Source of the DNA: a virus
Lineage: Duplodnaviria; Heunggongvirae; Uroviricota; Caudoviricetes
DNA: 64,000 bases
Direction: 5' to 3' (one strand)
Virus record (IMG/VR): IMGVR_UViG_3300045988_009865
Coordinates: 1-64,000 of that record
Position numbers and translations under genes: made by a program. The notes beneath the pieces are model-generated. The model was not told the DNA's origin. It saw nothing but the letters and a program-made list of their open reading frames with translations, and did no database searches. This document shows, one piece after another, positions 2,437-49,068 of the stretch (its first letter is position 1; each line of letters begins with the position of its first letter).

Positions 2437-2466
2437 TTGACAGACTCTACAAAGTTGCTCTAAAGT
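2437..2466 (+). promoter_or_regulatory. sigma70-like promoter (TTGACA, 18-nt spacer, TAAAGT) with AAAGTTTTAAAAGG-type A/T tract upstream
   Basis: -35 2437..2442, -10 2461..2466; 9-bp inverted repeat TGACAGACT/AGTCTGTCA (2438..2446 / 2464..2472) overlaps it. Confidence 0.5.
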
Positions 2467-2504
2467 CTGTCACATCAAACAACAATGAGCGAAGAGAGTA
2501 AAAT

Positions 2505-3920
2505 ATGAGCGAGTTATTCAAACATGCGCACCTTCATGCAGGTCGAACTGAAAATGGTGCTGTAAACCATACTTCATCAATGTCTGCTCTGGTAGACTTT
2601 TACAAAGCCGCTGGCTCAAGCCGTAGCAATGTAGAAATCTTACCAGACCTGTTCTACAAAGCTTTGCGTGAGGATGTTGATGTTGCAGTTCGTATTTTAC
2701 TGCATATGCGAGATGTACGAGAAGGCATGGGTGAGCGTAAAGCTTTCCGAACTGTTTTACTTCAAGCGATTGAAGATAAGGTTTTAGAGCCTACACAGGT
2801 TCTTCGTATTATGGATAAGATTGCAGAACTTGGTCGTTTTGATGACTTCAAAATCTTCGTAGGTACTCGTTTTGAGACAGATGCCTTCAAACATTTAGAA
2901 GCAGCATTACTAGACCCTGCAACAGCAGGTTTAGCAGCTAAGTGGTTACCACGAGTAAAACCACGCCACAAACAGTTTGTAAAACGTTTCTGTAAGTTTG
3001 CAAACTTAAGCGAGAAAGAGTATCGCACACTGTTATCTGCACTGTCTGATACGGTTGAGCAAAAAATCTCTGCGAATGAGTTTGGTAAGATTGACTACAG
3101 CAAGATTCCTTCACTCGCTGCTGCACGTTACCAAAAACTCTTTAACCGTAAAGATGGAGAACGTTACAAAGCTTACATCGAATCACTATCAAAGGGTGAG
3201 GCTAAGATTAACGCTGGTGCTGTTTACCCATATGATGTGATTAAATCTATTAAGTATGGTAATGCAGATGTTGCTAATGAGCAGTGGAAAGCACTTCCAA
3301 ACTGGATGGCAGAAGGTGAAAACATCTTGTGTATGACTGATGTTTCAAGCTCAATGTCTTGGGTAAATCTTGGCTCAATTACTGCCCTTGATATTGGTGT
3401 ATCACTTGCCTTGTATGTAGCAGAACGCAATACAGGTTGCTTTAAAGATGAGTTAATGGTCTATTCAACAAACCCTCATTTCATTGAACTGAGTGGTGAT
3501 TTACGAAACCGTCATCGTCAGGTAATGCGTCATGTTGAATATGGTTCAACTAACTTACAAGCAGCTTTTGACCGTATTCTTGAGATAGGTAAGAGAAACA
3601 ACTTGACTCAGAAAGATATGCCAAGTAAGCTTATTATCTTCTCTGATATGGAGTTTAATCAGGTTGATGGTGCAAATGGTCGTACAAACTTTGAAGCAAT
3701 TCAGAGTAAGTACAAAAAAGCTGGATACGAAATGCCACAACTGGTATTCTGGTACTTAGCAAACCGTAATGGTACTTGCGAAGTATCCGTTAAGGATAAC
3801 GGTGTAGCAATGGTATCAGGGTTCTCTCCAGCCACTTTAAAAGCTCTGCTTGGTGGTGAGAAGTTTGACCCAATCAGCGTAATGCTCAAAGCAGTAATGA
3901 TTGACCGTTATATCTGGTAA
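2505..3920 (+). CDS. von Willebrand factor A (MIDAS) domain protein
   Basis: 471 aa; DxSxS MIDAS motif in MTDVSSSMSW; GAGAG RBS; N-terminal domain not recognised. Confidence 0.6.
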   Translation: MSELFKHAHLHAGRTENGAVNHTSSMSALVDFYKAAGSSRSNVEILPDLFYKALREDVDVAVRILLHMRDVREGMGERKAFRTVLLQAIEDKVLEPTQVLRIMDKIAELGRFDDFKIFVGTRFETDAFKHLEAALLDPATAGLAAKWLPRVKPRHKQFVKRFCKFANLSEKEYRTLLSALSDTVEQKISANEFGKIDYSKIPSLAAARYQKLFNRKDGERYKAYIESLSKGEAKINAGAVYPYDVIKSIKYGNADVANEQWKALPNWMAEGENILCMTDVSSSMSWVNLGSITALDIGVSLALYVAERNTGCFKDELMVYSTNPHFIELSGDLRNRHRQVMRHVEYGSTNLQAAFDRILEIGKRNNLTQKDMPSKLIIFSDMEFNQVDGANGRTNFEAIQSKYKKAGYEMPQLVFWYLANRNGTCEVSVKDNGVAMVSGFSPATLKALLGGEKFDPISVMLKAVMIDRYIW

Positions 3921-3938
3921 AAAGTTTTAAAAAGGGTA

Positions 3939-3967
3939 TTGACAATGTGTTTAATACCCTTTAATAT
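3939..3967 (+). promoter_or_regulatory. sigma70-like promoter (TTGACA, 17-nt spacer, TAATAT)
   Basis: -35 3939..3944, -10 3962..3967; 7-bp inverted repeat GGGTATT/AATACCC overlaps -35; TTTTAAAAAGGG tract upstream. Confidence 0.55.
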
Positions 3968-4028
3968 GTTCTACATAGAAACGAAATGAGAGCTTTTCTA
4001 AGATACTGAAAAATATTTTAAAAAGTTC

Positions 4029-4058
4029 TTGACAACCACTAAAAAATAATGTTAAAGT
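4029..4058 (+). promoter_or_regulatory. sigma70-like promoter for the tRNA cluster (TTGACA, 18-nt spacer, TAAAGT)
   Basis: -35 4029..4034; inverted repeat AACCACT/AGTGGTT overlaps spacer and -10; first tRNA begins about 27 nt downstream. Confidence 0.5.
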
Positions 4059-4084
4059 GGTTACATAGAGTTTGAAAAGTTTAT

Positions 4085-4161
4085 CTCTGTTTAGCTCAGC
4101 TTGGTAGAGCGTTCCGTTTGGGGCGGTAAGGCCGGAGGTTCAAGTCCTCCAACAGAGACCA
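4085..4161 (+). tRNA. tRNA-Pro (anticodon TGG)
   Basis: 7-bp acceptor CTCTGTT/AACAGAG, D-arm TAGCTCAGCTTGGTAGAGC, loop TTTGGGG, T-arm GGAGGTTCAAGTCCTCC, encoded CCA. Confidence 0.75.
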
Positions 4162-4168
4162 AATTAAT

Positions 4169-4246
4169 GTTCCAGTAGACAAAACGGTAAAGTCACCACT
4201 CTTTCAAAGTGGATATTTGAGGGTTCAAATCCCTTCTGGAACGCCA
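4169..4246 (+). tRNA. tRNA-Glu (anticodon TTC)
   Basis: acceptor GTTCCAG/CTGGAAC, anticodon arm CCACT-CTTTCAA-AGTGG, T-loop TTCAAAT, CCA. Confidence 0.8.
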
Positions 4247-4251
4247 GTTTT

Positions 4252-4327
4252 GACAGAAGACCAATTACAGCAAACTTAATCTTATTCATCTGACACGAAA
4301 TCGGACAAAGAAGAGATTTGGTCTGGT
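4252..4327 (+). repeat. covarying stem element copy 1 (CAGAAGACCAA ... TTGGTCTGG)
   Basis: AGACCAA 4258..4264 pairs with TTGGTCT 4318..4324; conserved ACAGCAA after 5' arm. Confidence 0.6.
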
Positions 4328-4337
4328 CATTAAGAAT

Positions 4338-4414
4338 TGCGGGTATAGAGAAAGGGCGTCTCACATGTCTCATTAGCATGGTATCGGCAGGTTCGACTCC
4401 TGCACCCGCCTCCA
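4338..4414 (+). tRNA. tRNA with CAT anticodon (Met or Ile2); register of acceptor ambiguous
   Basis: D-stem GAGA/TCTC, anticodon arm CATGT-CTCATTA-GCATG, T-arm GCAGGTTCGACTCCTGC, CCA; 1-72 mismatch or 6-bp acceptor. Confidence 0.5.
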
Positions 4415-4420
4415 ATTTTG

Positions 4421-4480
4421 CAGAAGACCGTATGCAGCAATAAACTACTTTTTGCGGATAAAAGAAAAAACACGGTCTGG
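4421..4480 (+). repeat. covarying stem element copy 2 (CAGAAGACCGT ... ACGGTCTGG)
   Basis: AGACCGT 4425..4431 pairs with ACGGTCT 4472..4478. Confidence 0.6.
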
Positions 4481-4491
4481 CAATGTATTAA

Positions 4492-4568
4492 GGTTAGGAA
4501 GCACATAAGGTATGTGCGGTCGCCTGTTAAGCGAATGGCACAGGGTTCGAATCCCTGACTAACCGCCA
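4492..4568 (+). tRNA. tRNA-Asn (anticodon GTT)
   Basis: acceptor GGTTAGG/ACTAACC (6/7), loop CTGTTAA, T-arm CAGGGTTCGAATCCCTG, CCA. Confidence 0.75.
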
Positions 4569-4577
4569 AATTTAAAT

Positions 4578-4665
4578 GTGTCGTTATCCCGTAGATGGTA
4601 GCGGTGGGGACTGTAAATCCCTTGTCATTGAGACTCGGTAGGTTCGACTCCTACACGGCACACCA
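4578..4665 (+). tRNA. tRNA-Tyr (anticodon GTA), long variable arm
   Basis: acceptor GTGTCGT/ACGGCAC, anticodon arm GGGGA-CTGTAAA-TCCCT, 15-nt variable arm, T-arm GTAGGTTCGACTCCTAC, CCA. Confidence 0.65.
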
Positions 4666-4671
4666 AATAAA

Positions 4672-4749
4672 GGTTATGTAGTTTAATCTGGTTAAAATAC
4701 TCCCCTGTCACGGGAGATGATGAGGGTTCAAATCCCTTCGTAACCGCCA
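4672..4749 (+). tRNA. tRNA-Asp (anticodon GTC)
   Basis: acceptor GGTTATG/CGTAACC, anticodon arm CTCCC-CTGTCAC-GGGAG, T-loop TTCAAAT, CCA. Confidence 0.8.
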
Positions 4750-4835
4750 AATTATAATAAGTATTTCAAGATGATGTTTTGAGAGGGCTATTTAGCCCCT
4801 CCCTTAAAGAGTTCTTACGAGTATTCTTTAAAGGA

Positions 4836-4910
4836 GCAGAAGACCAAATACAGCAAGTTACTTAAAATTTCAAGCCAATTTAATTTTGAAAAATTTAAAA
4901 CTTGGTCTGG
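4836..4910 (+). repeat. covarying stem element copy 3 (CAGAAGACCAA ... TTGGTCTGG) enclosing palindrome TTTCAAG..TTTTGAAA
   Basis: AGACCAA 4840..4846 pairs with TTGGTCT 4902..4908. Confidence 0.6.
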
Positions 4911-4923
4911 CTCAACAAATTTA

Positions 4924-5055
4924 CAGAAGACCGTTTACAGCAAAAACTAAACAATCTATTTCTCCGGTAAAGAAAAGGCGAAGGTTCGATTCCTTCACTC
5001 GGCAGATGTCGAGTTGGTGTAATGGTAGCACTTAAGATGATAAACAACGGTCTGG
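4924..5055 (+). repeat. covarying stem element copy 4 (CAGAAGACCGTT ... AACGGTCTGG) enclosing the permuted tRNA-like locus
   Basis: AGACCGTT 4928..4935 pairs with AACGGTCT 5046..5053 (8 bp). Confidence 0.6.
4959..5032 (+). pseudogene. circularly permuted tRNA-Thr(GGT)-like locus: 3' half, GAT linker, 5' half
   Basis: 3' half 4959..5004: anticodon arm TTTCT-CCGGTAA-AGAAA, T-arm GAAGG-TTCGATT-CCTTC, acceptor 3' ACTCGGC, A73; 5' half 5008..5032: acceptor 5' GTCGAGT (7/7 with one G.U), D-arm GTGT-AATGGTA-GCAC; C at position 33. Confidence 0.45.
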
Positions 5056-5062
5056 TAATTGT

Positions 5063-5194
5063 CTTTGTAGATAAGTTATTAAGCTTACCTGTGAGTATGC
5101 GACCACAAAGGGTGAAAGGGTAAATTCTAGATTTAAACCCAACAAGGCACATCGCTACAGACCTTAAGCAAGTCTGGGTAGCTTATCTACAAAG
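5063..5194 (+). ncRNA. long imperfect hairpin element (possible small structured RNA)
   Basis: 13-bp inverted repeat CTTTGTAGATAAG 5063..5075 / CTTATCTACAAAG 5182..5194 closing about 105 nt; no tRNA fold. Confidence 0.3.
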
Positions 5195-5204
5195 ATAATT
5201 TAAT

Positions 5205-5280
5205 GGAAGTGTAGCAGAATGGTGATGCGGCAGACTTTTAATCTGACAGGCGATGGGTTCGAATCCCTCCACTTCTACCA
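5205..5280 (+). tRNA. tRNA-Lys (anticodon TTT)
   Basis: acceptor GGAAGTG/CACTTCT (G1.U72), loop CTTTTAA, T-loop TTCGAAT, CCA. Confidence 0.7.
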
Positions 5281-5284
5281 ATAT

Positions 5285-5361
5285 GGTTCAGTCGCAGATA
5301 AGGTAATGCAGGGGTCTCATAAGCTCTATGAATGTGGGTTCGATTCCCATCTGAACCTCCA
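5285..5361 (+). tRNA. tRNA with CAT anticodon (Met or Ile2)
   Basis: perfect acceptor GGTTCAG/CTGAACC, loop CTCATAA, T-arm GTGGGTTCGATTCCCAT, CCA; anticodon stem has wobble pairs. Confidence 0.6.
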
Positions 5362-5362
5362 A

Positions 5363-5438
5363 GCTGGTATAGTTAAGAAGGTTATAACACTCCCCTGATA
5401 AGGGAACATCGGTGGTTCGATTCCACCTACCAGTACCA
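5363..5438 (+). tRNA. tRNA-Ile (anticodon GAT)
   Basis: acceptor GCTGGTA/TACCAGT, loop CTGATAA, T-arm GGTGGTTCGATTCCACC, CCA. Confidence 0.75.
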
Positions 5439-5453
5439 ATTTCAATAAAGTTG

Positions 5454-5482
5454 TTGACATTGAGATGCGACTACTTTATAGT
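5454..5482 (+). promoter_or_regulatory. sigma70-like promoter (TTGACA, 17-nt spacer, TATAGT)
   Basis: -35 5454..5459, -10 5477..5482; directly downstream of tRNA-Ile; drives region holding the tag-like mini-ORF and tRNA-like element. Confidence 0.55.
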
Positions 5483-5531
5483 AACCTTAGTTTTCGTTGC
5501 GTAGCGTCTATTTTGCAAATTTAAAATAAAT

Positions 5532-5567
5532 GCAAACGACAATGTTTTTCTGGCAGTAGCTTGATAG
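5532..5567 (+). other. tmRNA-tag-like mini reading frame GCA AAC GAC AAT GTT TTT CTG GCA GTA GCT TGA TAG (ANDNVFLAVA, double stop)
   Basis: starts with GCA and encodes an AND-initial, Ala-rich decapeptide with tandem stops, resembling tmRNA resume/tag frames; no ATG or RBS in frame. Confidence 0.3.
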
Positions 5568-5715
5568 GCTAAACACCAGTGAGGTCTTCCAATCCCTCAT
5601 CAAAGAATTTGGCGTACTAGCCCACGGTATGATTAATAAGGTGGGCAACATTCTAAAGGGTATCCCTTATGGGGCTTGGCTTAAATGCAATGAGTACCCT
5701 TTAAAATGTTAATTA

Positions 5716-5797
5716 CGGGGCGTATCTCAGCGGTCTTCTAAACCGCCGTTAACCGAGTAAGTGGAGTATGCGGGTTCGAGTCCTGCCGCCTCGACCA
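5716..5797 (+). ncRNA. aberrant tRNA-like structure: Ala-type acceptor (G3.U70, A73, CCA), Arg-type loop (CTTCTAA), no canonical D-arm, 23-nt extra segment
   Basis: acceptor CGGGGCG/CGCCTCG 7/7 with G3.U70; perfect hairpin GCGGT-CTTCTAA-ACCGC; T-arm GCGGG-TTCGAGT-CCTGC; only 7 nt between acceptor and anticodon-like stem. Confidence 0.5.
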
Positions 5798-5813
5798 ATT
5801 TTGGATGAAATCA

Positions 5814-6160
5814 TGAAAACTTGTATTAGGTGCAAACTTAGCAAGGATGAAAGTGATTTCTACATGAAAGATGGTAGGAGAACTCATTCATACTGTAAAA
5901 AGTGTGTTAATGAGCAAACCATAGAAAGACAAAGAGCACTTAAACTTTCAGCTATTGAGTACAAAGGTGGGATTTGTCATGATTGTGGTAAAAGGTATCA
6001 TCCAGCAGTGTATGACTTCCATCATTTGAATCCTTCAGAGAAAGATTTTAACATTGGTCATAGAAAAAGTCTTAAGTTCTCTCAGGAGCTAAAAGATGAA
6101 CTTGACAAATGTGTTTTGCTATGTTCAAATTGCCATAGGGTAAGACATGCAAAGTATTAG
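5814..6160 (+). CDS. HNH homing endonuclease
   Basis: CxxC...CxxC zinc motifs and YDFHHLNPSEKDFNIG...LLCSNCHR HNH core; ATG at 5814 preferred over track start 5768, which lies inside the tRNA-like element. Confidence 0.7.
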
Positions 6161-6297
6161 TTAGCAGATTGCTTAGACGACCTTATCGGGTCTCCGTGTA
6201 AGGAGGTGGTCTGTATCTCATGTTTTCCAGAACATGTAAATAATCTGAGAAGGGGCTTTACAGTGTTGCGAAAATACGGTAAGCTTCGAATTATAGT

Positions 6298-6380
6298 GTG
6301 GGACGATGTTAAGACTCTAAGGCATGAGCAACGGCCTCCAAAACCGTTTCAAAGGGGTTCAACTCCTCCGTCCCATGCCA
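6298..6380 (+). tRNA. tRNA-Trp (anticodon CCA)-like with about 7 extra nt in the D region
   Basis: acceptor GTGGGAC/GTCCCAT (G1.U72), loop CTCCAAA, T-arm AGGGGTTCAACTCCTCC, CCA; D region 26 nt rather than about 19. Confidence 0.45.
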
Positions 6381-6393
6381 AAGTCTTATTAGG

Positions 6394-6481
6394 GGTAGGT
6401 AGCGGCTAATGGCAGCCAAACAGTCTTGAAAACTGTTGCCACTGTAGAGATACGGTGAGGGTTCGACTCCTTTACTTACCG
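6394..6481 (+). tRNA. tRNA-Ser (anticodon TGA), long variable arm
   Basis: acceptor GGTAGGT/ACTTACC, anticodon arm ACAGT-CTTGAAA-ACTGT, about 20-nt variable arm, T-loop TTCGACT. Confidence 0.65.
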
Positions 6482-6637
6482 CCTAATAAGATTTAAAGCC
6501 AAGCTTCATTCGGATGTTGCTTTGGTATCCCTCGTGTATTGTCGTACACGCACAGTAAAGCACCTAGTAGGTGTCACGGAGAAGAGATAATATCAAGCTC
6601 TCCAAAGGTTCTAGTCACCGGATTAAACAAGACTATG

Positions 6638-6662
6638 CAAAGACCAATTTAGGTCTTTTTAG
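6638..6662 (+). terminator. hairpin AAAGACCAATTTAGGTCTTTTT (minimal AGACCAA/GGTCT unit plus T-run)
   Basis: stem AGACC/GGTCT followed by TTTTT; same AGACCAA word as stem elements 1 and 3. Confidence 0.4.
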
Positions 6663-6739
6663 AGGGCTTCTAAGGTTATTACAGCTTGTTGTGGAACCTT
6701 GTTGCTTAGGTTCTTAGAAGTTCTCTAAAAAGATTTAAT

Positions 6740-6817
6740 GGGAGATTGACGGTAATTGGTAAACCTACCATCCTTAGAAGTTGGTGTTTGAGGGTTCGAA
6801 TCCCTTGTCTCCTACCA
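6740..6817 (+). tRNA. tRNA with anticodon TAG (Leu-type anticodon) but short variable arm
   Basis: acceptor GGGAGAT/GTCTCCT, loop CTTAGAA, T-arm GAGGGTTCGAATCCCTT, A73, CCA. Confidence 0.5.
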
Positions 6818-6824
6818 AATTAAT

Positions 6825-6900
6825 GCAGGTGTAGCAAAATGGTTATGCGGCTGACTCTTAATCAGTAAGACGATGGGTTCAATTCCCTCCACCTGTACCA
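6825..6900 (+). tRNA. tRNA-Lys (anticodon CTT)
   Basis: acceptor GCAGGTG/CACCTGT, anticodon arm GCTGA-CTCTTAA-TCAGT, T-loop TTCAATT, CCA; body resembles the Lys(TTT) gene. Confidence 0.65.
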
Positions 6901-6906
6901 AACATT

Positions 6907-6982
6907 GGGGATGTAGTTTACATGGTTAAAACATAAGTTTTGCAAACTTAAGTACAGGGTTCAATTCCCTGCTTCTCCACCA
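6907..6982 (+). tRNA. tRNA-Ala (anticodon TGC)
   Basis: acceptor GGGGATG with G3.U70, anticodon arm TAAGT-TTTGCAA-ACTTA, T-arm CAGGGTTCAATTCCCTG, A73, CCA. Confidence 0.75.
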
Positions 6983-6988
6983 ATTAGT

Positions 6989-7063
6989 GCATCCATAGTT
7001 TAAACGGGAAAATTACAGTCTTCCAAACTGAGGTTGAGGGTTCGATTCCCTCTGGATGCTCCA
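6989..7063 (+). tRNA. tRNA-Gly (anticodon TCC)
   Basis: perfect acceptor GCATCCA/TGGATGC, loop CTTCCAA, T-loop TTCGATT, CCA. Confidence 0.8.
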
Positions 7064-7070
7064 AATTAAT

Positions 7071-7147
7071 GCTGCTTTCGTATAATTGGCTATTACACAT
7101 CCCTTGTAAGGATGGAAATGCAGGTTCGAGTCCTGTGAGCAGCACCA
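7071..7147 (+). tRNA. tRNA-Thr (anticodon TGT)
   Basis: acceptor GCTGCTT/GAGCAGC, anticodon arm CATCC-CTTGTAA-GGATG, T-loop TTCGAGT, CCA. Confidence 0.8.
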
Positions 7148-7242
7148 ATTCAGAGGTCAAGTGAAAGACCGCTGGTGTCAACTGAAGACCGTAACAAATT
7201 CCACGGAGTTGAGTTAGCGGCACAACTTCAGACCTCTTTCAT

Positions 7243-7317
7243 ACTCGCTTAGTTTATATGGTAAAACACCACCCTTACAAGATGAAGAAAAAGGTTCAAG
7301 TCCTTTAGTGAGTACCA
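7243..7317 (+). tRNA. tRNA, probably Val (anticodon TAC); anticodon stem weak
   Basis: acceptor ACTCGCT/AGTGAGT, D-stem GTTT/AAAC, loop CTTACAA, T-arm AAAGGTTCAAGTCCTTT, CCA. Confidence 0.5.
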
Positions 7318-7318
7318 T

Positions 7319-7396
7319 GTTCCAGTATCCCAATTGGCAGAGGATGCAAGCTCAAACCTTGTATTAGTGACGGTTCGAATCCGTCTTGGAACACCA
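7319..7396 (+). tRNA. tRNA with anticodon CAA (Leu-type anticodon) but short variable arm
   Basis: acceptor GTTCCAG/TTGGAAC, D-loop CAATTGGCAGA, anticodon arm GCAAG-CTCAAAC-CTTGT, T-arm GACGGTTCGAATCCGTC, A73, CCA. Confidence 0.55.
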
Positions 7397-7412
7397 ATTT
7401 TAGGAGAACACT

Positions 7413-7520
7413 ATGAGTGATAAGTCAATTGCAAAAAAGTTTATAGCGTCATTCAAAAATAGGCGTAAAAACAAAGATTGTGAAAAACTGTATGGTGTTC
7501 TTGTAGGTAAGCAGGATTAG
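7413..7520 (+). CDS. small hypothetical protein (35 aa) inside the tRNA cluster
   Basis: AGGAG RBS 7 nt upstream of ATG 7413; MSDKSIAKKFIASFKNRRKNKDCEKLYGVLVGKQD; stop overlaps 5' end of tRNA-Arg. Confidence 0.25.
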   Translation: MSDKSIAKKFIASFKNRRKNKDCEKLYGVLVGKQD

Positions 7521-7586
7521 TTCAAATGGATAGAGCAACAGTCTACGAAGCTGTTAATAGGGGTTCGAATCCCTTATCCTGCGCCA
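7511..7586 (+). tRNA. tRNA-Arg (anticodon ACG)
   Basis: perfect acceptor GCAGGAT/ATCCTGC, D-arm GTTCAAATGGATAGAGC, loop CTACGAA, T-loop TTCGAAT, CCA. Confidence 0.8.
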
Positions 7587-7605
7587 ATTTAAAGAGGCTA
7601 TTTAG

Positions 7606-8163
7606 ATGAGATATTTGAAGTATGCTTCATGGATTTTCTTAGCTTTGTTAGAGCCATTTGCAGCAATCTTAGCAGTTATCTTAGCACCTTTCGTAGTTCC
7701 ATTTTACAGTGAGAAGAAAGGACACTTACCTTTTGGATTCAGATGGATGGAGACATATGATAACCCAATTGATGGTGATAAAGGTCATGTCGAACGATGG
7801 GCTAAGATTAGAAAGGTTGGTAAGCTTGGTGTCTATTTGCAGAGAGTTGGATGGCTCTGGAGAAACAAAGCTTATAACTTCTCTTACCATGTGTTAGGAA
7901 GAGATGTAAAAGATGTTACTAAGTGGAAAGGTAATATCAACGTAAGTTCTGACCCTGAAGATAATCAGACAGGTTATCTCCTGATGTGGAACAGTAACGC
8001 TTGGGGATTATTCGCCTTTATCCCATCAATTAAAATCTTCGGTAAACAATTCTACTGGAGAATTTATGTTGGATGGAAACTTAAAAGTGTTGTCCCAGAA
8101 GAAAGAGCATTCTCAAGGGAAAGAGTTATGTTGGCATTCTTTATTCATCCACTAAGAAAGTAA
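7606..8163 (+). CDS. hypothetical membrane protein embedded in the tRNA cluster
   Basis: 185 aa; hydrophobic N-terminus; AAAGAGG RBS. Confidence 0.55.
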   Translation: MRYLKYASWIFLALLEPFAAILAVILAPFVVPFYSEKKGHLPFGFRWMETYDNPIDGDKGHVERWAKIRKVGKLGVYLQRVGWLWRNKAYNFSYHVLGRDVKDVTKWKGNINVSSDPEDNQTGYLLMWNSNAWGLFAFIPSIKIFGKQFYWRIYVGWKLKSVVPEERAFSRERVMLAFFIHPLRK

Positions 8164-8171
8164 AGATTTAA

Positions 8172-8247
8172 AGGGGATTAGTTTACAAGGTTAAAACCTC
8201 GGTCTTTGAAATCGAAGAAGTTGGTTCAATTCCAACATCCCCCGCCA
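8172..8247 (+). tRNA. tRNA-Gln (anticodon TTG)
   Basis: acceptor AGGGGAT/ATCCCCC (weak 1-72 pair), anticodon arm TCGGT-CTTTGAA-ATCGA, T-arm GTTGGTTCAATTCCAAC, CCA. Confidence 0.7.
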
Positions 8248-8249
8248 AT

Positions 8250-8328
8250 GCTCCATTACTCCAATTGGCAGAGAGGCCAGACTTAAAATCTGTGTTATGT
8301 ATCGGTTCGAATCCGATATGGAGTACCA
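8250..8328 (+). tRNA. tRNA with anticodon TAA (Leu-type anticodon) but short variable arm
   Basis: acceptor GCTCCAT/ATGGAGT, D-loop CAATTGGCAGA, anticodon arm CCAGA-CTTAAAA-TCTGT, T-arm ATCGGTTCGAATCCGAT, A73, CCA. Confidence 0.55.
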
Positions 8329-8333
8329 AATTT

Positions 8334-8409
8334 AGCGGTATAGCATAACTGGCAATGCAGCAGTCTCTGAAGCTGTCTTATTAAGGTTCAAATCCTTATG
8401 CCGCTGCCA
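8334..8409 (+). tRNA. tRNA-Gln (anticodon CTG)
   Basis: acceptor AGCGGTA/TGCCGCT, D-stem GCAT/ATGC, loop CTCTGAA, T-arm TAAGGTTCAAATCCTTA, CCA. Confidence 0.65.
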
Positions 8410-8440
8410 CTTCTAAGGGTTCTTACGAGAGTCCTTAAAT

Positions 8441-8516
8441 GTGGCCTTATCATAAAAGGTAATGACCCATGCTGTGAACATGGTCTATACGGGTTCAAAT
8501 CCCGTAGGTCACCCCA
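8441..8516 (+). tRNA. tRNA-His (anticodon GTG)
   Basis: acceptor GTGGCCT/AGGTCAC, perfect anticodon arm CCATG-CTGTGAA-CATGG, T-arm ACGGGTTCAAATCCCGT, CCA. Confidence 0.8.
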
Positions 8517-8521
8517 ATTTA

Positions 8522-8598
8522 TAGTCCAAGTAGCTTATATGGTTAAAGCGCGTGTCTGAAAAACATGAGAAGAGGGTTCAAATCCCACTGGACTACCA
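8522..8598 (+). tRNA. tRNA-Phe (anticodon GAA)
   Basis: acceptor TAGTCCA/TGGACTA 7/7, anticodon arm CGTGT-CTGAAAA-ACATG, T-loop TTCAAAT. Confidence 0.7.
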
Positions 8599-8614
8599 AT
8601 TTCAAAGGTGCTTA

Positions 8615-9349
8615 ATGAAAGAGATGACAGAACAAGGTAAGGAGATTTTTAATCTCTTAAAAACCGGTAGAGGGTTTTCTAATCCCCTTATTACTGGTGC
8701 AGCAGTTCTCGGTGGAACCGTAGCTGCCTCTACATCACTTGTAAGCTCTATTAGCTCTGTAACAGACCCTACAATGAAGGATAAGCTCATTGCTGCTGGA
8801 CTTACAACAGTTCTGCTTAGCAGCTTTACAACGAGTCTGACAAGCACTACATCAACCACTAAAACACTGACAGATTACGGTCAAAAGTCTATTGATGAGT
8901 TTTCATCACGTATGCAGGTAGCAAAAGGCTACTCCAATGTTATGGGTGCAGCAGGAGAGCAAGTTGGTTGTACACCATTTAGTGGTATTATGGGTGTTGC
9001 TACAGAGTATGGTCAAAAAGCTATTGACACAATTAACAGTGCACTAGACGGTGTTAATGATGTATTAAGTGACTTACAAGATGCTATTGATAAAGGTCTT
9101 GATACTGTTTCTGATTTAGCTAACCAAGCTGTTAGTAAGATTAATGAAGGTATCTCGAAGATTACAGCTTATGCAGATGAAGTTGTGCAGATGATTGAAG
9201 AAGAAGCTGCCCTTATTGCAGAGTACCTTAAAACGAATATCAATGGGTTCTTAGCAGGTATCTTACCAGACTGGTTTGATGATGCTTGTAAAACTGGTGT
9301 GATTGACACTATTGCAACACCAGAAATGAAGAACGCATTACAGAAATAA
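8615..9349 (+). CDS. hypothetical protein (Ser/Thr-rich N-terminal half)
   Basis: ATG at 8615 preferred over track GTG start 8552, which overlaps tRNA-Phe; AAAGGTG RBS. Confidence 0.5.
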   Translation: MKEMTEQGKEIFNLLKTGRGFSNPLITGAAVLGGTVAASTSLVSSISSVTDPTMKDKLIAAGLTTVLLSSFTTSLTSTTSTTKTLTDYGQKSIDEFSSRMQVAKGYSNVMGAAGEQVGCTPFSGIMGVATEYGQKAIDTINSALDGVNDVLSDLQDAIDKGLDTVSDLANQAVSKINEGISKITAYADEVVQMIEEEAALIAEYLKTNINGFLAGILPDWFDDACKTGVIDTIATPEMKNALQK

Positions 9350-9350
9350 T

Positions 9351-9443
9351 GGAAGATTAACCCTAAAAGGTAAGGGAGCAGTTTGCTAAACTGCCAGTAG
9401 CTGAGAAATCGGTGTACCAGTTCAAGTCTGGTATCTTCCTCCA
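9351..9443 (+). tRNA. tRNA-Ser (anticodon GCT), long variable arm
   Basis: perfect acceptor GGAAGAT/ATCTTCC, anticodon arm GCAGT-TTGCTAA-ACTGC, long variable arm, T-arm ACCAGTTCAAGTCTGGT, CCA. Confidence 0.75.
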
Positions 9444-9447
9444 ATTT

Positions 9448-9620: not shown

Positions 9621-9685
9621 ACAGAGCTATACTTTATAAGAAGCCTTATACAGTATGTCTCTGACGTACATTGTGGTTTCTCCTT

Positions 9686-9709: not shown

Positions 9710-9745
9710 AAGGAGAAACATAATTAATTATTTGGAGAAAACATA

Positions 9746-30429: not shown

Positions 30430-30438
30430 TTTCTTTAC

Positions 30439-30460
30439 AGGGGCTTTATAGCCCCTTTTA
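30439..30460 (+). terminator. hairpin AGGGGCT-TTAT-AGCCCCT then TTT
   Basis: between the two fiber genes; short T-run. Confidence 0.5.
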
Positions 30461-30475
30461 AGAGGATAATATATA

Positions 30476-40923: not shown

Positions 40924-40930
40924 TTTGGTA

Positions 40931-41420: not shown

Positions 41421-44120
41421 TTAGTGTACTTCAAGCCAGCTTTTACCAACCTTACCAGTACCTGTAACAAGTGTTTCTTTCTTAAGACCTAAGTTTTTAG
41501 AAGCTTGTCCATAATACCAGTCAGTAACTGCTTTCACATCTGCCGTCATACTTTCTGGACATTCCCAACTCGTCTCATCGTGATATGCGCAGAGCAAACG
41601 AGCACCAATAGCTGGTTGACGACCATTCAACTTCATCAAACCTTCGTCAATCATACGACGGCAAGCAAGGTTAATTGCCTCATTCTGAATTTGAGCCTCT
41701 GAACCCATCAAAAGATAGTTCAACAGTTTGTGTGGAGATTTACACCACAACCAAGCTCCAGCAACCTTTACAAAACCCCCTTTAGAGATTGCAGCAGTCT
41801 TACCAAACACCTCTTCAAGTGCTTTTTTAGTTGCTTTGTAGTCAGCTTCCAAGTCATCAAGTAGCTTCTTAATCTTAGGCAAACGAATAAAGTAAGTCTG
41901 TTTAGTTAGTGCACCTTCCTGAGTAGTTGCAGCTTTAATCGTCTTAGCAAACTTCTCATCACCTGCACCGAACAGTAGTGCATAGATACCATTCTTAGCT
42001 TTCTTACGACCCTTGCTAATCTCATGAAGAAGGTTCTCATCCTGAGTAGCTCGACAAGTCAAGATATCCTGCTCATCATTCAAGCTAAAGTAAATACTGT
42101 TCAGTGTGTGTGCATCAGTCCCTGAATAGACAACGTAAAGGTCATTCTCAGAGTCATAGCGTAGGTACTTATCAACCTCTGGATTGAGGTACTCATCAAA
42201 GTGTTTGCAGTAATAGCGTCCATCTTCTTGACGAATAAACTCAATCTCTTCTTTACCTTGCGTTACCGCTTTGGTGAAGTCTTTGTCACCCATAAAGTTA
42301 CAAAGAAGGACTAGCTGGGCTGAGTTCATGTCTACAGAGACAACGTTAGTACCTTCTTCACAAATCCACACTGCCCTCATTGGTTCCCCATAGACAGCAG
42401 CACCAGACGGTACGTTTACAATACCATACTGTGTCATACGTCCAGTTGAAGTACCAAATACCATTGCACCAGCACTAAGGCGACCATCAGGACGAATCTG
42501 GTTCAGCCAACCTTTTTCATCATCCTTTGAGTTCTCAATAGTTCTGCGTCGGTGCATCAAAGTATAGTACTTAGCAATCTTCTGTCCAAGCTCACCTTCA
42601 ATCGTATCATAAGATGATTCAGTAAGTTTTGGTGAAGTACGGATTAAGCAAGGCTCAAGCAAATCTGTGTACTTCTTCACAGACCAGTTATGTTCAATGT
42701 ACTGGACACCTTCATGTTCAACATAACTCAAACCACACCGTTCCACCATCTCATCCCACTTAGGATGTTTTGTAATCATCTTTTTGTTGTCTTTGAAGCG
42801 ACAAACCTTAACAGGACGACCATCAGAGTCTTTCTTATAGTTCCAGTCATCTGGAATCCAACCAACTGATTTCAAGTAGTCTTTAACAACTGCTACCTGA
42901 GTCATACGAGAAACTTCGAACTCAATTGGTGTATATGGTGCATCAATCAAACCTGTGTAGCGACTTGACTCAAGCTCAAAGTGGTTAACAACATGGCTGT
43001 TATAGTACTTCACAGTCTTAACTGTTTTTACTGGCTTCCAGTCTTTGCACTTCTTACCAATCTTTGCATTCAACTCATTGCAAATTGCACGAGCATCCTT
43101 CATTGCTACAAAGCCTTCCTTGTACTCTTCGCCAGTTACAGAGTTGGTTGGTGTATAGCAATTCCGCTTTTCAATGTTAAAAATCTTGGTAGTTGGTTTA
43201 CCAAATGGCTTGATTTCATATGTCTGCATCTCACCGTTACGTACCTGTTGACGATACTTTGTCTTAGGGTACTTGGTAATTCTCTTCAGTCCATCTGCAT
43301 GACCGAATGCTTCAACATACTCATTCCAAGCTTTTGCAAACTCTTCTCCAGTGACTTTACCTTTGGTCTTAATAGTTGGAGGAAGATGTGGTTCAACTTC
43401 TGAAGCAAGCTCATTAGTCAATTTGTCAAGTTCCTTTACATGAAACTCCATAAGCTCTTTATCAGCTTTCCAACCATTGATAGCCTGTTGACTCATCCAG
43501 AAAGATGTTTCTTTAGCTCGCATGTAGGTTTCATAAGTGTCTATGCCACACTTCTTTAGCTTGAGATATTCATTATCCAGTGCACGTTTAGTTTTGGCGT
43601 TAATACGGATGTCTTCTACAACACGAGTGAAGATTTCTGCATTCCACACACCCCAATGTTCAATCTCTGGTTTACGTACACCAACACGAGCACCCCATGC
43701 AGCCAATCCATGAGCACCTTTATAGCCCTTTGGAGTTGGTCTATCCATCCACTGAACACGAGACTGGATAAGAGAATCCTGAAAGAAATTACTCCACGGC
43801 TTACACTTTGGATTATCAAAGTTCCACAAATCAGGTGCAATGTGATTGAAAACCCACCAGTCATACCCTAAACCATTATGGATGCAAAGTCGTTTTGCCT
43901 TTAACGCAAACTCAATACCTTCACGCAAACCACCCTTAATGTACTTGGTATACTTGTGACCGAGGATAGGTTCATCTGTAAAGACCCATACAGGTGGCTC
44001 TTCATCGTCAGATTTATAGTCTGCGAAAGCCATTACGTGCACCTTAGTGAACTCAAGGAGTAAACCATCAGTTTCTGTATCACCAACTAAATGTAAGTTT
44101 TTAAAATCTACGTTTTCCAT
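41421..44120 (-). CDS. DNA polymerase, family A, with 3'-5' exonuclease domain
   Basis: exo motif VGDTETDGL; Pol A motif A-like VVSVDMNSAQL, motif B-like K..GIYALLFGAG, motif C LLCAYHDE; ATG 44120 with AGAGGGAG RBS preferred over 44150. Confidence 0.85.
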   Translation of the reverse strand: MENVDFKNLHLVGDTETDGLLLEFTKVHVMAFADYKSDDEEPPVWVFTDEPILGHKYTKYIKGGLREGIEFALKAKRLCIHNGLGYDWWVFNHIAPDLWNFDNPKCKPWSNFFQDSLIQSRVQWMDRPTPKGYKGAHGLAAWGARVGVRKPEIEHWGVWNAEIFTRVVEDIRINAKTKRALDNEYLKLKKCGIDTYETYMRAKETSFWMSQQAINGWKADKELMEFHVKELDKLTNELASEVEPHLPPTIKTKGKVTGEEFAKAWNEYVEAFGHADGLKRITKYPKTKYRQQVRNGEMQTYEIKPFGKPTTKIFNIEKRNCYTPTNSVTGEEYKEGFVAMKDARAICNELNAKIGKKCKDWKPVKTVKTVKYYNSHVVNHFELESSRYTGLIDAPYTPIEFEVSRMTQVAVVKDYLKSVGWIPDDWNYKKDSDGRPVKVCRFKDNKKMITKHPKWDEMVERCGLSYVEHEGVQYIEHNWSVKKYTDLLEPCLIRTSPKLTESSYDTIEGELGQKIAKYYTLMHRRRTIENSKDDEKGWLNQIRPDGRLSAGAMVFGTSTGRMTQYGIVNVPSGAAVYGEPMRAVWICEEGTNVVSVDMNSAQLVLLCNFMGDKDFTKAVTQGKEEIEFIRQEDGRYYCKHFDEYLNPEVDKYLRYDSENDLYVVYSGTDAHTLNSIYFSLNDEQDILTCRATQDENLLHEISKGRKKAKNGIYALLFGAGDEKFAKTIKAATTQEGALTKQTYFIRLPKIKKLLDDLEADYKATKKALEEVFGKTAAISKGGFVKVAGAWLWCKSPHKLLNYLLMGSEAQIQNEAINLACRRMIDEGLMKLNGRQPAIGARLLCAYHDETSWECPESMTADVKAVTDWYYGQASKNLGLKKETLVTGTGKVGKSWLEVH

Positions 44121-44180
44121 TTTTACTCCCTCTAAAATCATTAACCTCATACATTACTGCAAAAAATTATAAAAAGCAAG

Positions 44181-46616: not shown

Positions 46617-48594
46617 AGGTCGTAAATTGAAAGAGGCTGGTCAGTTTGTTGGTCATTGCGCATGTCCACGTTGTGGTTCATCAGATGCTGGTTCAATCTA
46701 TCATCATGACGATGATTCTTATTCAATGACTTGCTTTAGTTGTAACAAAGGTTTCCCAGAGTGGGATTTTGATAAAGGACAAATCGTGAGCACTTATTCT
46801 ACTGGTTCAGACAATAAAAACCGTACTTTCCGTGGAATGGATTTAGACGATGTGAAAGAAAACCTTGAAGCAATGGACTTGAAAGACAGGAAGATTCCTG
46901 CAAAAGTTCTTGAGCGTTTGGGTATTAAGGTTGACATTGACAGTGATGGTGAAATTGATGCGCATTTCTATCCAACTTACAAACGTAATGAAGATGGTAA
47001 GCTAGAGCACGTTGGCTACCGTGTTCGTCACCGTTACCCAGAAGACCATCCAAAAGAACACCTACGAGGTAAGCTAAAAGACTTCTCAGGCGGTGTTGGA
47101 GACATTAAAGGTGAACTGGCGATGTTCGGTTCATGGATTGCTCCAGAAGGTGGTAACCGTCTATTCATCTGGGAAGGTGAGATGGAATGTGCGACAGCAA
47201 TCTACATGACTTCTTTGGCGATTAAAGATAAATCTCGTCGTAAGAATTACTGTCACGTATCTGTTCCATCAGGCGCAAACATTAAATCTATCAAAGACAA
47301 CTATCAGTACATCACATCATTTGATGAGATTTACTTGTGCTTTGATAACGATGAAGCTGGTGCTAAAGCTACCAAAGAGGCTGCTGGTATCCTACCTATT
47401 GAGAAGGTTCGTTTATTCCAGTATCCAGAAGGTGTAAAAGACCTTAATGAATGGTGGACAAAGTTCTATAAAGAGAAAGACACAGTTCTGGAAGGATTTA
47501 AGCAGCGTATCTACAATGCACCTCGTTACTGCCCTGCTGGTATCAAGAACTTTGCAGACGGTTTTGAGGCAATGAAGAATCGTGGTCAGATTCCATTGAT
47601 TCCTTTCCCAGAGTCTTTCGGGGATTTGAACAGGCTGACTTATGGTGGTTATGGTTTAGGTGAGATTACAACTATTGCAGCACCATCTTCAGTAGGTAAG
47701 TCAGCTTACACTCGTGAGATGATTTATTCAGCTTGGAAAGAAACTGATTACAATATCGGTGTAATTCCTGTAGAAGATACCTATGAAGAGTTGATGGAGA
47801 TGCTCTGTGCAATTCACCTAAGCAAGCAGATTTCTGAGATTCCTTATGATGAACGGGATTGGGATGAACTAAAAGGAGCACACGCAGAACTATCTAAAGG
47901 TCGTCGTATCCATATCGTTGACCATCAAGGGGCAATTGACCAAGATAACCTGCTAGAGTTTGTTGACTATCTTGTTAATAGTTTAGACTGTAAGATTATC
48001 ATCCTTGACCCTATTACGTTGGCTCTGTCACGTTCAGATACGGATGAAGAGGAAGTTTTGTCTGAGCTATTGCGTCGTTGCAAACGCTACCAGTATGCGC
48101 AGGTAAACGTGTGTCACGTTCGTAAGAGTGCAGGTGGTCAGAAAGCCAACTCTGAAGGTGGAGATATCTCTGAAGAGGATATTAAGGGTTCTGGTGCATA
48201 CTTCCAGATTTCCATGAATAATATTTTGTTAATGCGTAACAAGGTTGACCCAGACCCTGTTAAGAAAAACTTGACAAAAATCAAGTTAACTAAATGTCGT
48301 CGTCATGGTAAGTCAACAGGTATTGCTGGTCATACTTGGTACAATCCAGATACAGGACGTCTTATCAAAGCTTCTGGATGTGGTGTTGATATTGATGGTG
48401 CAGCAGAAAATATTCGTCAACAGTTTGGTATTGGTGAAGCTGAAGACCATTACGATGACTCTTTACCTCATTATGAGGATGAAGTGTTTGACCGTGAGAC
48501 TGGTGAAGTCTATACTGAAGAACAACGTCAAAGCTCAACAATTCCACCTGTATTAAGTGAGGATGCAGATGACTGCCCGTTTGAAACTGAGTGA
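46603..48594 (+). CDS. bifunctional DNA primase-helicase (T7 gp4-like architecture)
   Basis: N-terminal zinc ribbon CPRCGS...CFSCNKG, central TOPRIM-like region, C-terminal Walker A APSSVGKSAYT. Confidence 0.8.
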   Translation: MLMSKGRKLKEAGQFVGHCACPRCGSSDAGSIYHHDDDSYSMTCFSCNKGFPEWDFDKGQIVSTYSTGSDNKNRTFRGMDLDDVKENLEAMDLKDRKIPAKVLERLGIKVDIDSDGEIDAHFYPTYKRNEDGKLEHVGYRVRHRYPEDHPKEHLRGKLKDFSGGVGDIKGELAMFGSWIAPEGGNRLFIWEGEMECATAIYMTSLAIKDKSRRKNYCHVSVPSGANIKSIKDNYQYITSFDEIYLCFDNDEAGAKATKEAAGILPIEKVRLFQYPEGVKDLNEWWTKFYKEKDTVLEGFKQRIYNAPRYCPAGIKNFADGFEAMKNRGQIPLIPFPESFGDLNRLTYGGYGLGEITTIAAPSSVGKSAYTREMIYSAWKETDYNIGVIPVEDTYEELMEMLCAIHLSKQISEIPYDERDWDELKGAHAELSKGRRIHIVDHQGAIDQDNLLEFVDYLVNSLDCKIIILDPITLALSRSDTDEEEVLSELLRRCKRYQYAQVNVCHVRKSAGGQKANSEGGDISEEDIKGSGAYFQISMNNILLMRNKVDPDPVKKNLTKIKLTKCRRHGKSTGIAGHTWYNPDTGRLIKASGCGVDIDGAAENIRQQFGIGEAEDHYDDSLPHYEDEVFDRETGEVYTEEQRQSSTIPPVLSEDADDCPFETE

Positions 48595-48850
48595 TAGTTA
48601 TAAAAGAGAGGGGTTCATACCCTTCTTTGAAGAAAAAAGTTTAAATGAATTTCAGGAAGAGTGTTTGACAAAGGTTGATAGGTTCTATAGAATGCTCTAC
48701 ATGAAATGTGATGGAGGCGTTGAGGTAGAAGAAAAGTTCCATCACAGTATGATAACAGTCACTATTACTATACCTCGACATAATATTGGTTGGTTGTTTA
48801 TAATTAAAGAAAATGTGTTTGAATATCAAGTATATCGGAGAATATCATGA
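48557..48850 (+). CDS. hypothetical protein (uncertain)
   Basis: 97-aa ORF overlapping primase-helicase 3' end. Confidence 0.3.
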   Translation: MRMQMTARLKLSDSYKREGFIPFFEEKSLNEFQEECLTKVDRFYRMLYMKCDGGVEVEEKFHHSMITVTITIPRHNIGWLFIIKENVFEYQVYRRIS

Positions 48851-48996
48851 AACACTCTAAAGCATTTGAAAAAGTTTTTGGGGATTCCTTAAAAGCCACT
48901 GCTGGTAAACCAGCAAAATACTATGAAGAGAAGCGTGTAAGAACTGGAAAAACTGCACGTAAAGCAGCTTCTAAAGATAAGCACAACTTCCAGTAA
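48847..48996 (+). CDS. small basic protein (49 aa)
   Basis: GGAGA RBS; MKHSKAFEKVFGDSLKATAGKPAKYYEEKRVRTGKTARKAASKDKHNFQ. Confidence 0.3.
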   Translation: MKHSKAFEKVFGDSLKATAGKPAKYYEEKRVRTGKTARKAASKDKHNFQ

Positions 48997-49002
48997 TTAA
49001 TG

Positions 49003-49031
49003 TTTGACAATAGAGTATCAACAAATTAGAA
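49003..49031 (+). promoter_or_regulatory. sigma70-like promoter (TTGACA, 17-nt spacer, TAGAAT)
   Basis: -35 49003..49008, -10 49026..49031; 6-bp inverted repeat AGAGTA/TACTCT (49011..49016 / 49035..49040) overlaps it. Confidence 0.5.
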
Positions 49032-49068
49032 TTGGTACTCTTCATAAATTGAGATAGAGGTTTAAATA

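Follow-up and report, generated by a model that had tools for sequence, protein, structure and literature searches.

The window analysed here, a stretch of 64,000 nucleotides of a virus of the Caudoviricetes (positions 1 to 64,000 of the IMG/VR record IMGVR_UViG_3300045988_009865), contains eight intergenic sigma70-like promoters, each of which is overlapped by an inverted repeat able to fold into a hairpin. The promoters carry TTGACA or TTGACT at -35 and TAnnnT at -10, 16-18 nt apart. The association between the promoters and the repeats is not due to chance, and there is good support for regarding the sites as genuine promoters on which selected, hairpin-forming elements are superimposed. 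An original prediction, which had listed seven of the eight sites, took the recurring architecture for a shared feature, and the enrichment of the repeats, the shuffled controls and the conservation of the arms bear this out and mark it as a selected one.

Across 10 kb the window shows 95-98% identity to Felix O1-like myophages of E. coli and Salmonella (among them KEP1, EF202P1 and Felix O1) and is assigned by its sequence to Felixounavirus (Ounavirinae). Its genes form four co-directional blocks (minus strand to 1803; plus strand 2053-33498; minus strand 33535-44150; plus strand from 44378) and include 25 tRNA genes spanning 4085-9523. A scan of the whole window with Rfam returned tRNAs only, and none of the element sites matches a known RNA family.

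Inverted repeats at intergenic promoters

The eight elements and one cassette-like element are listed below, with the RNA folding energy where given, the z value of the fold against shuffles and the shuffle P of the repeat.

P2437, 2433..2476, plus strand: promoter-in-hairpin between the DUF5681 gene (stop 2424) and a 471-aa DUF2828/vWA gene (start 2505); -35 TTGACA 2437-2442, -10 TAAAGT 2461-2466; perfect 9-bp repeat 2438-2446 / 2464-2472, extended by GGTGT/ACATC; -15.6 kcal/mol, z -3.4, P 0.002.
P3939, 3931..3967, plus strand: promoter-in-hairpin beginning 10 nt past the stop at 3920; 10-bp repeat AAAGGGTATT / AATACCCTTT, 3931-3940 / 3953-3962; -35 TTGACA 3939-3944, placed in the left arm and loop; -10 TAATAT 3962-3967; z -3.9, P 0.007.
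P4029, 4029..4062, plus strand: promoter of the tRNA cluster (first tRNA 4085); -35 TTGACA 4029-4034, -10 TAAAGT 4053-4058; 7-bp repeat AACCACT / AGTGGTT, 4034-4040 / 4056-4062; z -1.7, P 0.24, alone not significant.
P5454, 5445..5482, plus strand: element starting 6 nt past tRNA-Ile; -35 TTGACA 5454-5459, -10 TATAGT 5477-5482; 7-bp repeat 5445-5451 / 5473-5479 with an inner stem; -10.1 kcal/mol, z -2.4, P 0.075.
P32862, 32862..32917, plus strand: promoter after the tail-fibre gene (stop 32854), ahead of a 65-aa gene and then the putative holin; -35 TTGACT 32862-32867, -10 TAATAT 32885-32890; two-tier hairpin with outer stem 32872-32883 / 32906-32917 (perfect 9-bp core 32875-32883 / 32906-32914) and inner stem 32886-32892 / 32897-32903, including four G.U pairs; -22.7 kcal/mol, z -6.2, P 0.004.
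P37091, 37063..37110, minus strand: promoter with -35 TTGACA 37091-37086 and -10 TATTTT 37068-37063; perfect 13-bp repeat 37110-37098 / 37076-37064, its loop holding the -35 and most of the spacer; -17.8 kcal/mol, z -4.6, P <0.001.
P38844, 38787..38844, minus strand: promoter 7 nt past the DNA ligase stop; -35 TTGACA 38844-38839, -10 TATACT 38822-38817; 9-bp repeat 38829-38821 / 38796-38788, with the DR_4 hairpin (38786-38748) directly after; -15.3 kcal/mol, z -2.9, P 0.005.
P49004, 49004..49041, plus strand: promoter with -35 TTGACA 49004-49009 and -10 TAGAAT 49027-49032; stem 49012-49021 / 49032-49041, 10 bp with one G.U pair allowed, perfect core 6 bp (49012-49017 / 49036-49041); z -3.1, P 0.42 for the perfect core.
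Cassette-like element, 30433..30462, plus strand: TTTACA with the hairpin GGGGCT-TTAT-AGCCCC and TTTT directly after it, in the gap from a gene end at 30429 to a gene start at 30476; without a good -10, its junction of -35 and stem being the same as in the repeated cassettes of relatives described below.

All seven repeats of the original prediction are present in the sequence, each overlapping an intergenic sigma70-like site with a gene or the tRNA cluster downstream on the same strand. At full perfect length they measure, in the order in which they had been listed (P2437, P3939, P4029, P32862, P49004, P37091, P38844), 9, 10, 7, 9, 6, 13 and 9 bp, five of them (9, 10, 9, 13 and 9 bp) being longer than first given; the repeats at 3931 and 32875 had been given as 7 bp and those at 37064 and 38788 as 8 bp, and one pair of coordinates, 49011/49035, was off by one. 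The eighth case, P5454, had been overlooked. Six of the eight hairpins begin 6-20 nt past the upstream stop codon or tRNA and end 16-46 nt ahead of the next start, and tracts of the ATTTTAAAAAG type are found 5' of P2437, P3939 and P4029.

For the chance expectation, sigma70-like sites were taken as those matching at least 10 of the 12 hexamer positions, and repeat length as the best perfect inverted repeat (loop 3-30) overlapping such a site. The longest repeats at the 10 intergenic sites measure 4, 5, 5, 6, 7, 7, 9, 9, 10 and 13 bp, whereas none of the 30 coding sites has one above 6 bp (Mann-Whitney p=0.001). Repeats of 9 bp or more are carried by 40% of the intergenic promoters (4/10), compared with 5.4% of intergenic non-promoter windows and 0.7% of coding windows, which disposes of the concern raised in the original prediction that palindromes at promoters might not rise above background. 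Repeats of this length are also distributed unevenly in the window as a whole, with 11 in the non-coding 11% and 5 in the coding 89%. When sequences were shuffled with both hexamers fixed, the null mean was 0.13 sites with repeats of at least 9 bp against 5 observed (one of them a site with 9/12 matches), and none of 1000 shuffles reached 5. Taken individually, five of the seven sites of the original prediction, which had proposed such a shuffle test, are non-random (2437, 3939, 37091, 38844 and 32862, all at P 0.007 or below), while the 7-bp repeat at 4029 and the 6-bp repeat at 49004 lie within chance on length alone; 49004 is still supported because of compensatory changes in relatives. RNA folding is more stable than in shuffles at seven of the eight elements (z -2.4 to -6.2), P4029 being the exception.

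Conservation was examined in a sample of about 45 relatives drawn from IMG/VR and metagenomes and belonging to Felixounavirus, Mooglevirus and Suspvirus, with flanking proteins 85-100% identical. The -35 hexamer and the T, A and T of the -10 are fixed in the alignments while the spacers drift, and the sites are therefore credible as real promoters, as had been supposed. P37091, moreover, carries a promoter annotation in the ASO1B record. Pooled over the eight elements, variable positions amount to 9/96 (9%) in the hexamers and 25/178 (14%) among paired non-hexamer positions, against 28/74 (38%) among unpaired positions within the hairpins and 94/293 (32%) in the 20-nt flanks (Fisher test, 7e-5 for paired versus unpaired and 1e-5 for paired versus flanks). 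This low variation of the arms indicates purifying selection beyond what the promoter hexamers account for. Pairing is kept in 17 of the 28 variant pair states over all sites, comprising 10 changes from Watson-Crick to G.U pairs, 6 from G.U to Watson-Crick pairs and 1 double change, as compared with 5 A.C and 5 other mismatches.

Compensatory changes are present at two sites. At P32862, where the arms are invariant among 19 haplotypes, the innermost C-G pair is replaced by U-A in relatives and one U.G pair by C-G. At P49004, in relatives about 78% identical, one pair changes from A-T to G-C, the next from T.T to G-C or A-T, and a T.G pair to C-G, with the -10 varying in its middle only; these pair changes were read by eye since the automatic alignment had put a 1-nt deletion in the wrong place. 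At P2437, 35 haplotypes show nearly fixed arms around a highly variable spacer, and the changes in the arms yield G.U pairs, while at P38844 a core of about 105 nt is almost invariant between highly variable flanks. The repeat of P4029 is lost in Moogle-group relatives, which carry another 7-bp repeat (AACACTA / TAGTGTT) with the same left arm as anchor.

Repeated cassettes in relatives and likeness to known systems

In phages related to the window, elements of the same kind occur as repeated copies. In EF202P1, whose genome is nearly identical, a region of small early genes beyond the window (stretch L144, 11.5-17.7 kb) has gaps of about 88 nt that are copies of one cassette, TAAAGTACTTTACAgGGGGCTTAA-N11-TTAAGCCCCAGATAAAGAGCTTTA, in which a TTTACA-17-TAnnnT promoter lies within a two-tier hairpin of about -24 kcal/mol; at least 7 copies are present. 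A second type has a GGGGAGG hairpin just 3' of a TTGACA-17-TAAATT promoter, and in one case of the same region a stem-loop lies exactly between the boxes, TTGACAAGGGGCTTTGAAGCCCCTTAGAAT. The two families number 7+6 copies in EF202P1 against 2+3 in Felix O1, where they correspond to the 57- and 39-bp 'direct repeats' listed in the Felix O1 genome paper (PMC3185647). Homologous cassettes with the inner stem GGTGTTTA/TAAGCACC are found in Erwinia phage Pistou (Kolesnikvirus; stretch L143, 31-35 kb), and a U.G pair is common to all four Erwinia cassettes. The joint alignment of the EF202P1 and Pistou cassettes keeps CTTTACA and the T, A and last T of the -10 invariant, 97.3% of its cells pair, and 4 pairs are altered on both sides; this covariation exceeds that of all 500 shuffles and collapses when the partners are slid, the observed value being above all slid controls.

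The cassettes also border gene differences. Comparison of EF202P1 with Felix O1 revealed two gene segments restricted to EF202P1, both bounded by cassette copies, and the alignment blocks beside them overlap by 90 and 68 nt on the single Felix O1 cassette, as is typical of cassette copies that have recombined with one another. Within the window, the relatives' cassette is represented only by the partial copy at 30433. For the window's own sites, the only hint of such a gene difference is that Pistou lacks the 471-aa gene together with P3939 between the orthologues of P2437 and P4029. The gap of Pistou equivalent to P32862 holds TTGACA followed by a canonical hairpin and a T-run.

A design of this kind is known from T4-type phages (RB49/phi1, PST and nt-1) under the name of PeSLs (promoter-early stem-loops), compact cassettes between genes in which a sigma70-like early promoter, preceded by AT-rich sequence, is combined with a stem-loop (Arbiol et al. 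2010, PMC2839356; Comeau et al. 2014, PMC4122927). This stem-loop may be placed between the two promoter boxes, over either of them or just outside (PMC2839356), promoter and terminator activity have been demonstrated along with a role in modular gene shuffling (PMC2839356; PMC4122927), and in nt-1 the stem is of the type A3-4G3-loop-C3T3-4 (PMC4122927). The original prediction had overlooked this existing name. The window elements likewise combine an intergenic sigma70-like promoter, an AT-rich tract 5' of it and a stem-loop between, over or beside the boxes, placed after a stop codon and ahead of the next Shine-Dalgarno sequence and start codon, and the AAAGGG...CCCTTT of P3939 resembles the nt-1 stem type. 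They differ from PeSLs in having unique arms, loops of 12-24 nt that hold the hexamers and no GGGG/CCCC motif, in lying, for several of them, in conserved late or replication regions and not in hyperplastic ones, and in belonging to Ounavirinae rather than T4-like phages, no sequence resemblance pointing to homology having been seen by informal look. Thus the structural traits of PeSLs (promoter, overlapping stem-loop, stop-to-start position) are shared by the window elements, but repeated conserved copies within one genome are not, the arms of all eight being different; the repeated copies and the indel borders occur instead in the cassettes of the same lineage (EF202P1, with copies also in Felix O1 and Pistou). 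The elements are best filed as PeSL-like promoter/stem-loop composites of an Ounavirinae phage, a possible terminator role being only weakly signalled by the sequence. No paper linking PeSLs with Felix O1-like phages was found in the literature.

Intrinsic terminators offer a second comparison. As in these, the hairpins follow directly upon gene ends, the ASO1B annotation treats the DR_4 hairpin as a terminator, and the hairpin of P3939 appears among the rho-independent terminators of the Felix O1 genome paper as t42/t43, where ttgaca can be seen in its loop (PMC3185647). Most window hairpins, in contrast, have AT-rich stems, loops far over the usual 3-8 nt and no T-run, and are poor candidates for the intrinsic-terminator class (GC-rich stem, 3-8 nt loop, T-run). 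The early genes of phage T7 are separated by RNase III processing hairpins, helices of about 20 bp with an internal loop that are not known to overlap promoters; a similar build is seen in P32862 (12+7 bp) and, with a 3x3 loop, in the two-tier cassettes (11+9 bp), cleavage here being hypothetical. In a Felix O1-like genome, that of Erwinia phage phiEa21-4, Lehman and co-workers are reported to have described dispersed conserved terminator copies in Applied and Environmental Microbiology in 2009. Those repeated intergenic hairpins may be among Pistou's, but reportedly figure there as terminators and not as promoters embedded in hairpins.

Action of the hairpins and competing explanations

With start sites predicted from the hexamers, every element (8/8) has its left arm upstream of the start, in or 5' of the -35, the spacer or the -10. 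The transcript of the promoter itself holds the right arm at most and hence cannot form the hairpin, so that the RNA 5'-end structure suggested in the original prediction is ruled out by geometry, a 5'-untranslated-region hairpin needing both arms downstream of the start. It follows from the same position of the left arm that the hairpin can form only in extruded DNA or in RNA that reads through from the unit upstream.

On balance we lean towards a hairpin that works in read-through RNA where the upstream unit ends, through attenuation, processing or protection of the 3' end, with the embedded promoter restarting transcription. In each short gap between units, a host sigma70 promoter would start the downstream unit, and superimposed on it an inverted repeat, starting a few nucleotides past the upstream stop codon, would fold with the AT-rich spacer and the -10 or -35 as its loop and the unique flanking bases as its stem. 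Such a hairpin would define where the upstream message ends, whether through attenuation or termination, through processing of the RNase III type or through protection of the 3' end from exonucleases, and re-initiation at the embedded promoter would insulate each unit from the preceding one. Where many copies share their sequence, they may also serve as sites of homologous recombination by which genes are gained or lost. An action as RNA is suggested by the start of the hairpins just past the upstream stop or tRNA end at six of the eight sites, and by P32862, with -22.7 kcal/mol in the sense against -12.4 kcal/mol in the antisense strand, the Erwinia cassettes being likewise sense-stable.

Several observations weigh against this reading. 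Three intergenic promoter-like sites that match well (48665, 48775 and 9605) have no repeat and fold no better than shuffles, and four strong promoter-like sites in the first half of the Pistou genome show no long perfect repeat and no enrichment, the conserved architecture having turned up in that phage only in the small-gene region. A terminator scan flags one of the eight elements (3931-3962 only), the loops being 12-24 nt long, and a partial T-run is present at P3939 and P37091 only, with none at P2437, P4029, P32862, P38844 and P49004. The strand asymmetry expected of an RNA is strong at P32862 and the Erwinia cassettes only; judged from sense and antisense energies, P2437, P4029 and the E. 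coli-phage cassettes have none or the opposite one; the lack of strand bias at the other sites leaves room for a DNA-level role or for antisense termination. One-sided transitions at Watson-Crick pairs, 10 to G.U and 5 to A.C, do not differ significantly. As for recombination, no indels bounded by the window's own elements were found among close relatives at 48.0-49.3 kb or 2.4-4.1 kb, and because the window arms are unique these copies cannot be recombination sites. The searchable literature yielded no start-site, 3'-end or transcriptome data for Felixounavirus.

A switch at the level of DNA, corresponding to the promoter occlusion suggested in the original prediction, in which negative or transcription-driven supercoiling extrudes a cruciform, the geometry of -35 and -10 is lost and the promoter is silenced or timed without a repressor, appears unlikely. 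Such a factor-free timing would be useful to a phage encoding no RNA polymerase or sigma-modifying proteins, as is the case for Felix O1 (PMC3185647). The repeats would suit it in that the cores are perfect Watson-Crick repeats of 9-13 bp, as DNA pairing needs, that the hexamers are bracketed by or included in the arms, and that sense and antisense energies show no consistent bias. With spacers of 12-24 bp between the arms, however, cruciform extrusion is kinetically very unfavourable; the extended stems need G.T pairs (four at P32862, and the U.G of the Erwinia cassettes), for which the other strand would have A.C mismatches, and the hairpins are placed at gene ends like RNA 3' structures. 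In the cruciform-controlled promoter that Horwitz and Loeb are said to have reported in Science in 1988, the engineered repeat reportedly had a short spacer; an inverted repeat over the -35 and -10 whose extrusion would destroy the promoter geometry is common to both, whereas the spacers in the window are long and the G.T-dependent extensions argue for RNA.

Less probable still is that the hairpins, with the A-rich UP-like tract as a T-run on the opposite strand, are bidirectional or antisense terminators that stop convergent or antisense transcription and overlap promoters incidentally. Read on the opposite strand, TTTTTAAAAC comes directly after the P3939 hairpin and TTTTAAAATTATTTTTT after the extended P2437 hairpin, t43 of Felix O1 is annotated on the complement strand, and the antisense fold is slightly stronger at P2437 and P4029. 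The sites lie, however, within long co-directional gene blocks with no antisense units evident, and neither strand has a T-run at the repeated cassettes, P32862, P38844 or P49004.

It is similarly doubtful that the elements constitute a factor-free timing device, folded by read-through transcription or its supercoiling as nascent RNA or extruded DNA and thereby toggling the embedded promoter. If this were true, a phage without its own RNA polymerase or sigma factor would order early, middle and late expression by cis structures, and a question left open by the Felix O1 genome paper, in which the passage of transcription through many terminators and its timing are called unexplained (PMC3185647), would be answered.

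Operators and a neutral origin are disfavoured. A palindrome over a promoter is the classical layout for binding of a dimeric phage or host regulator, and one HTH_3 protein is encoded in the window (36129-36428, minus strand), the single such regulator there; yet the eight arm sequences have no half-site in common, the centre-to-centre distance ranges over 22-34 bp, placement relative to the hexamers differs at every site, and the covarying pairs (G-C to U-A, A-T to G-C) preserve pairing rather than a recognition sequence. Operators are thus highly improbable, and a set bound by one shared repressor was rejected on the grounds of arm sequence, spacing, position and covariation, as the original prediction had anticipated from the differing sequences. 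There is equally little to recommend a neutral by-product of quasi-palindrome (template-switch) mutation or of chance, with repeats tolerated in non-coding DNA: the general intergenic enrichment of repeats of at least 9 bp and the 6- and 7-bp repeats would fit it, but promoters stand about 8-fold above the intergenic background, arms are conserved like hexamers while loops and flanks drift, and compensatory changes are present.

Further structured regions and implications

Additional features were observed. Two intergenic regions of the early operon on the minus strand, 37019-37395 and 38427-38850, are paralogous and built of modules. Both contain long degenerate GGT-rich runs with a period of about 5-6 nt (for example ggtcaggtcaggtcaggtgaggtaaggtaagg) that are hypervariable among close relatives, and both share a TTTTAAAAGGTCTTTAAAyAGGGTCTTTTA block and a GGGTAGTTAnTCnnAGCTAC hairpin; the copies of a further hairpin differ by a compensatory change, TGGCAG/CTGCCA versus TGGTAG/CTACCA. 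The regions may represent an origin, an array for protein binding or a non-coding RNA transcribed from P38844. The hairpin element CATCACTTAAGAGTCTTTTAAGAGGGTTnTTAAGTGA occurs twice (37210-37244 and 38748-38786), its sense RNA forming a stem of about 19 bp with G.U pairs (-17 to -21 kcal/mol) and its antisense a weaker one, with no T-run; it is annotated as DR_4 in wV8 and as 'terminator' in ASO1B.

Downstream of the repeat-free site P48665, a small ORF apparently starts at ATG 48701 (48701-48850), about 8 nt after the -10, and would be almost leaderless; differences among relatives fall mostly at 3-nt steps, which suggests coding. A 9-bp repeat after P48665 (48707-48746) was considered as a 5'-untranslated-region hairpin and rejected, as its substitutions, mostly 3 nt apart, break the pairing, and it probably lies within this ORF.

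The motif TTGACAAGGTG is present in 4 copies (1915, 44193 and 59945 on the plus strand; 41414 on the minus strand), where chance would give 0.07. A tandem TTGACAannnacTTGACAAGGTGT includes it at 1903/1915 and 44181/44193, in both gaps of divergent transcription, and at 59945 it runs straight into a strong terminator hairpin; it may represent a distinct promoter class or a regulator site. Two-tier hairpins with a long outer inverted repeat around a canonical GC-rich terminator are found at 9676-9719 (GTTTCTCCTT...AAGGAGAAAC around GACGGTCTCTGTACCGTC-TTTTTT, the outer 3' arm at 9710 containing the Shine-Dalgarno-like AAGGAG) and at 806-841 (TATAAACAG...CTGTTTATA around AGGGGC...GCCCCT). A weak Rfam tRNA match at 5716-5794, at 31.7 bits just over the gathering score and not reported by ARAGORN, overlaps the start of an ORF at 5768-6160.

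In Pistou, the region 3' of the P2437 orthologue (stretch L107, 2455-2600) is non-coding, whereas in the window the 471-aa DUF2828/DUF7788/vWA gene occupies this position. Within it, a long stem, GAGAGCTTCAGAG...CTCTGAAGG, encloses a T-arm like that of a tRNA, GAGGGTTCGAGTCCCTTCACC; ARAGORN-style annotation calls no tRNA there, and the stretch may be a structured RNA. The same phage encodes an RNA chaperone of the ProQ/FinO family (stretch L143, 19191-19649; Pfam E=3e-18) that could bind structured 3' hairpins; no such protein was found in the three ORFs just 3' of a 593-aa ORF, taken from its position alone for the nadV counterpart, in an E. coli phage relative.

The elements described here would extend the PeSL design, in which promoter and stem-loop share one compact intergenic cassette able to drive gene shuffling, beyond the T4-like phages to the Felix O1-like phages, a myophage subfamily unrelated to them. 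They also allow features of Felix O1 that were published separately, namely the 'direct repeats', the 'terminators' t42/t43 and a handful of promoters, of which the genome paper names five (PMC3185647), to be reinterpreted together. In practical terms, likely boundaries of transcription units and recombination joints are provided for a phage group widely used in typing and biocontrol of Salmonella and E. coli, along with specific hairpins whose compensatory mutants are testable. That the design turns up a second time suggests convergence on a solution of general use to compact lytic phages dependent on the host RNA polymerase.

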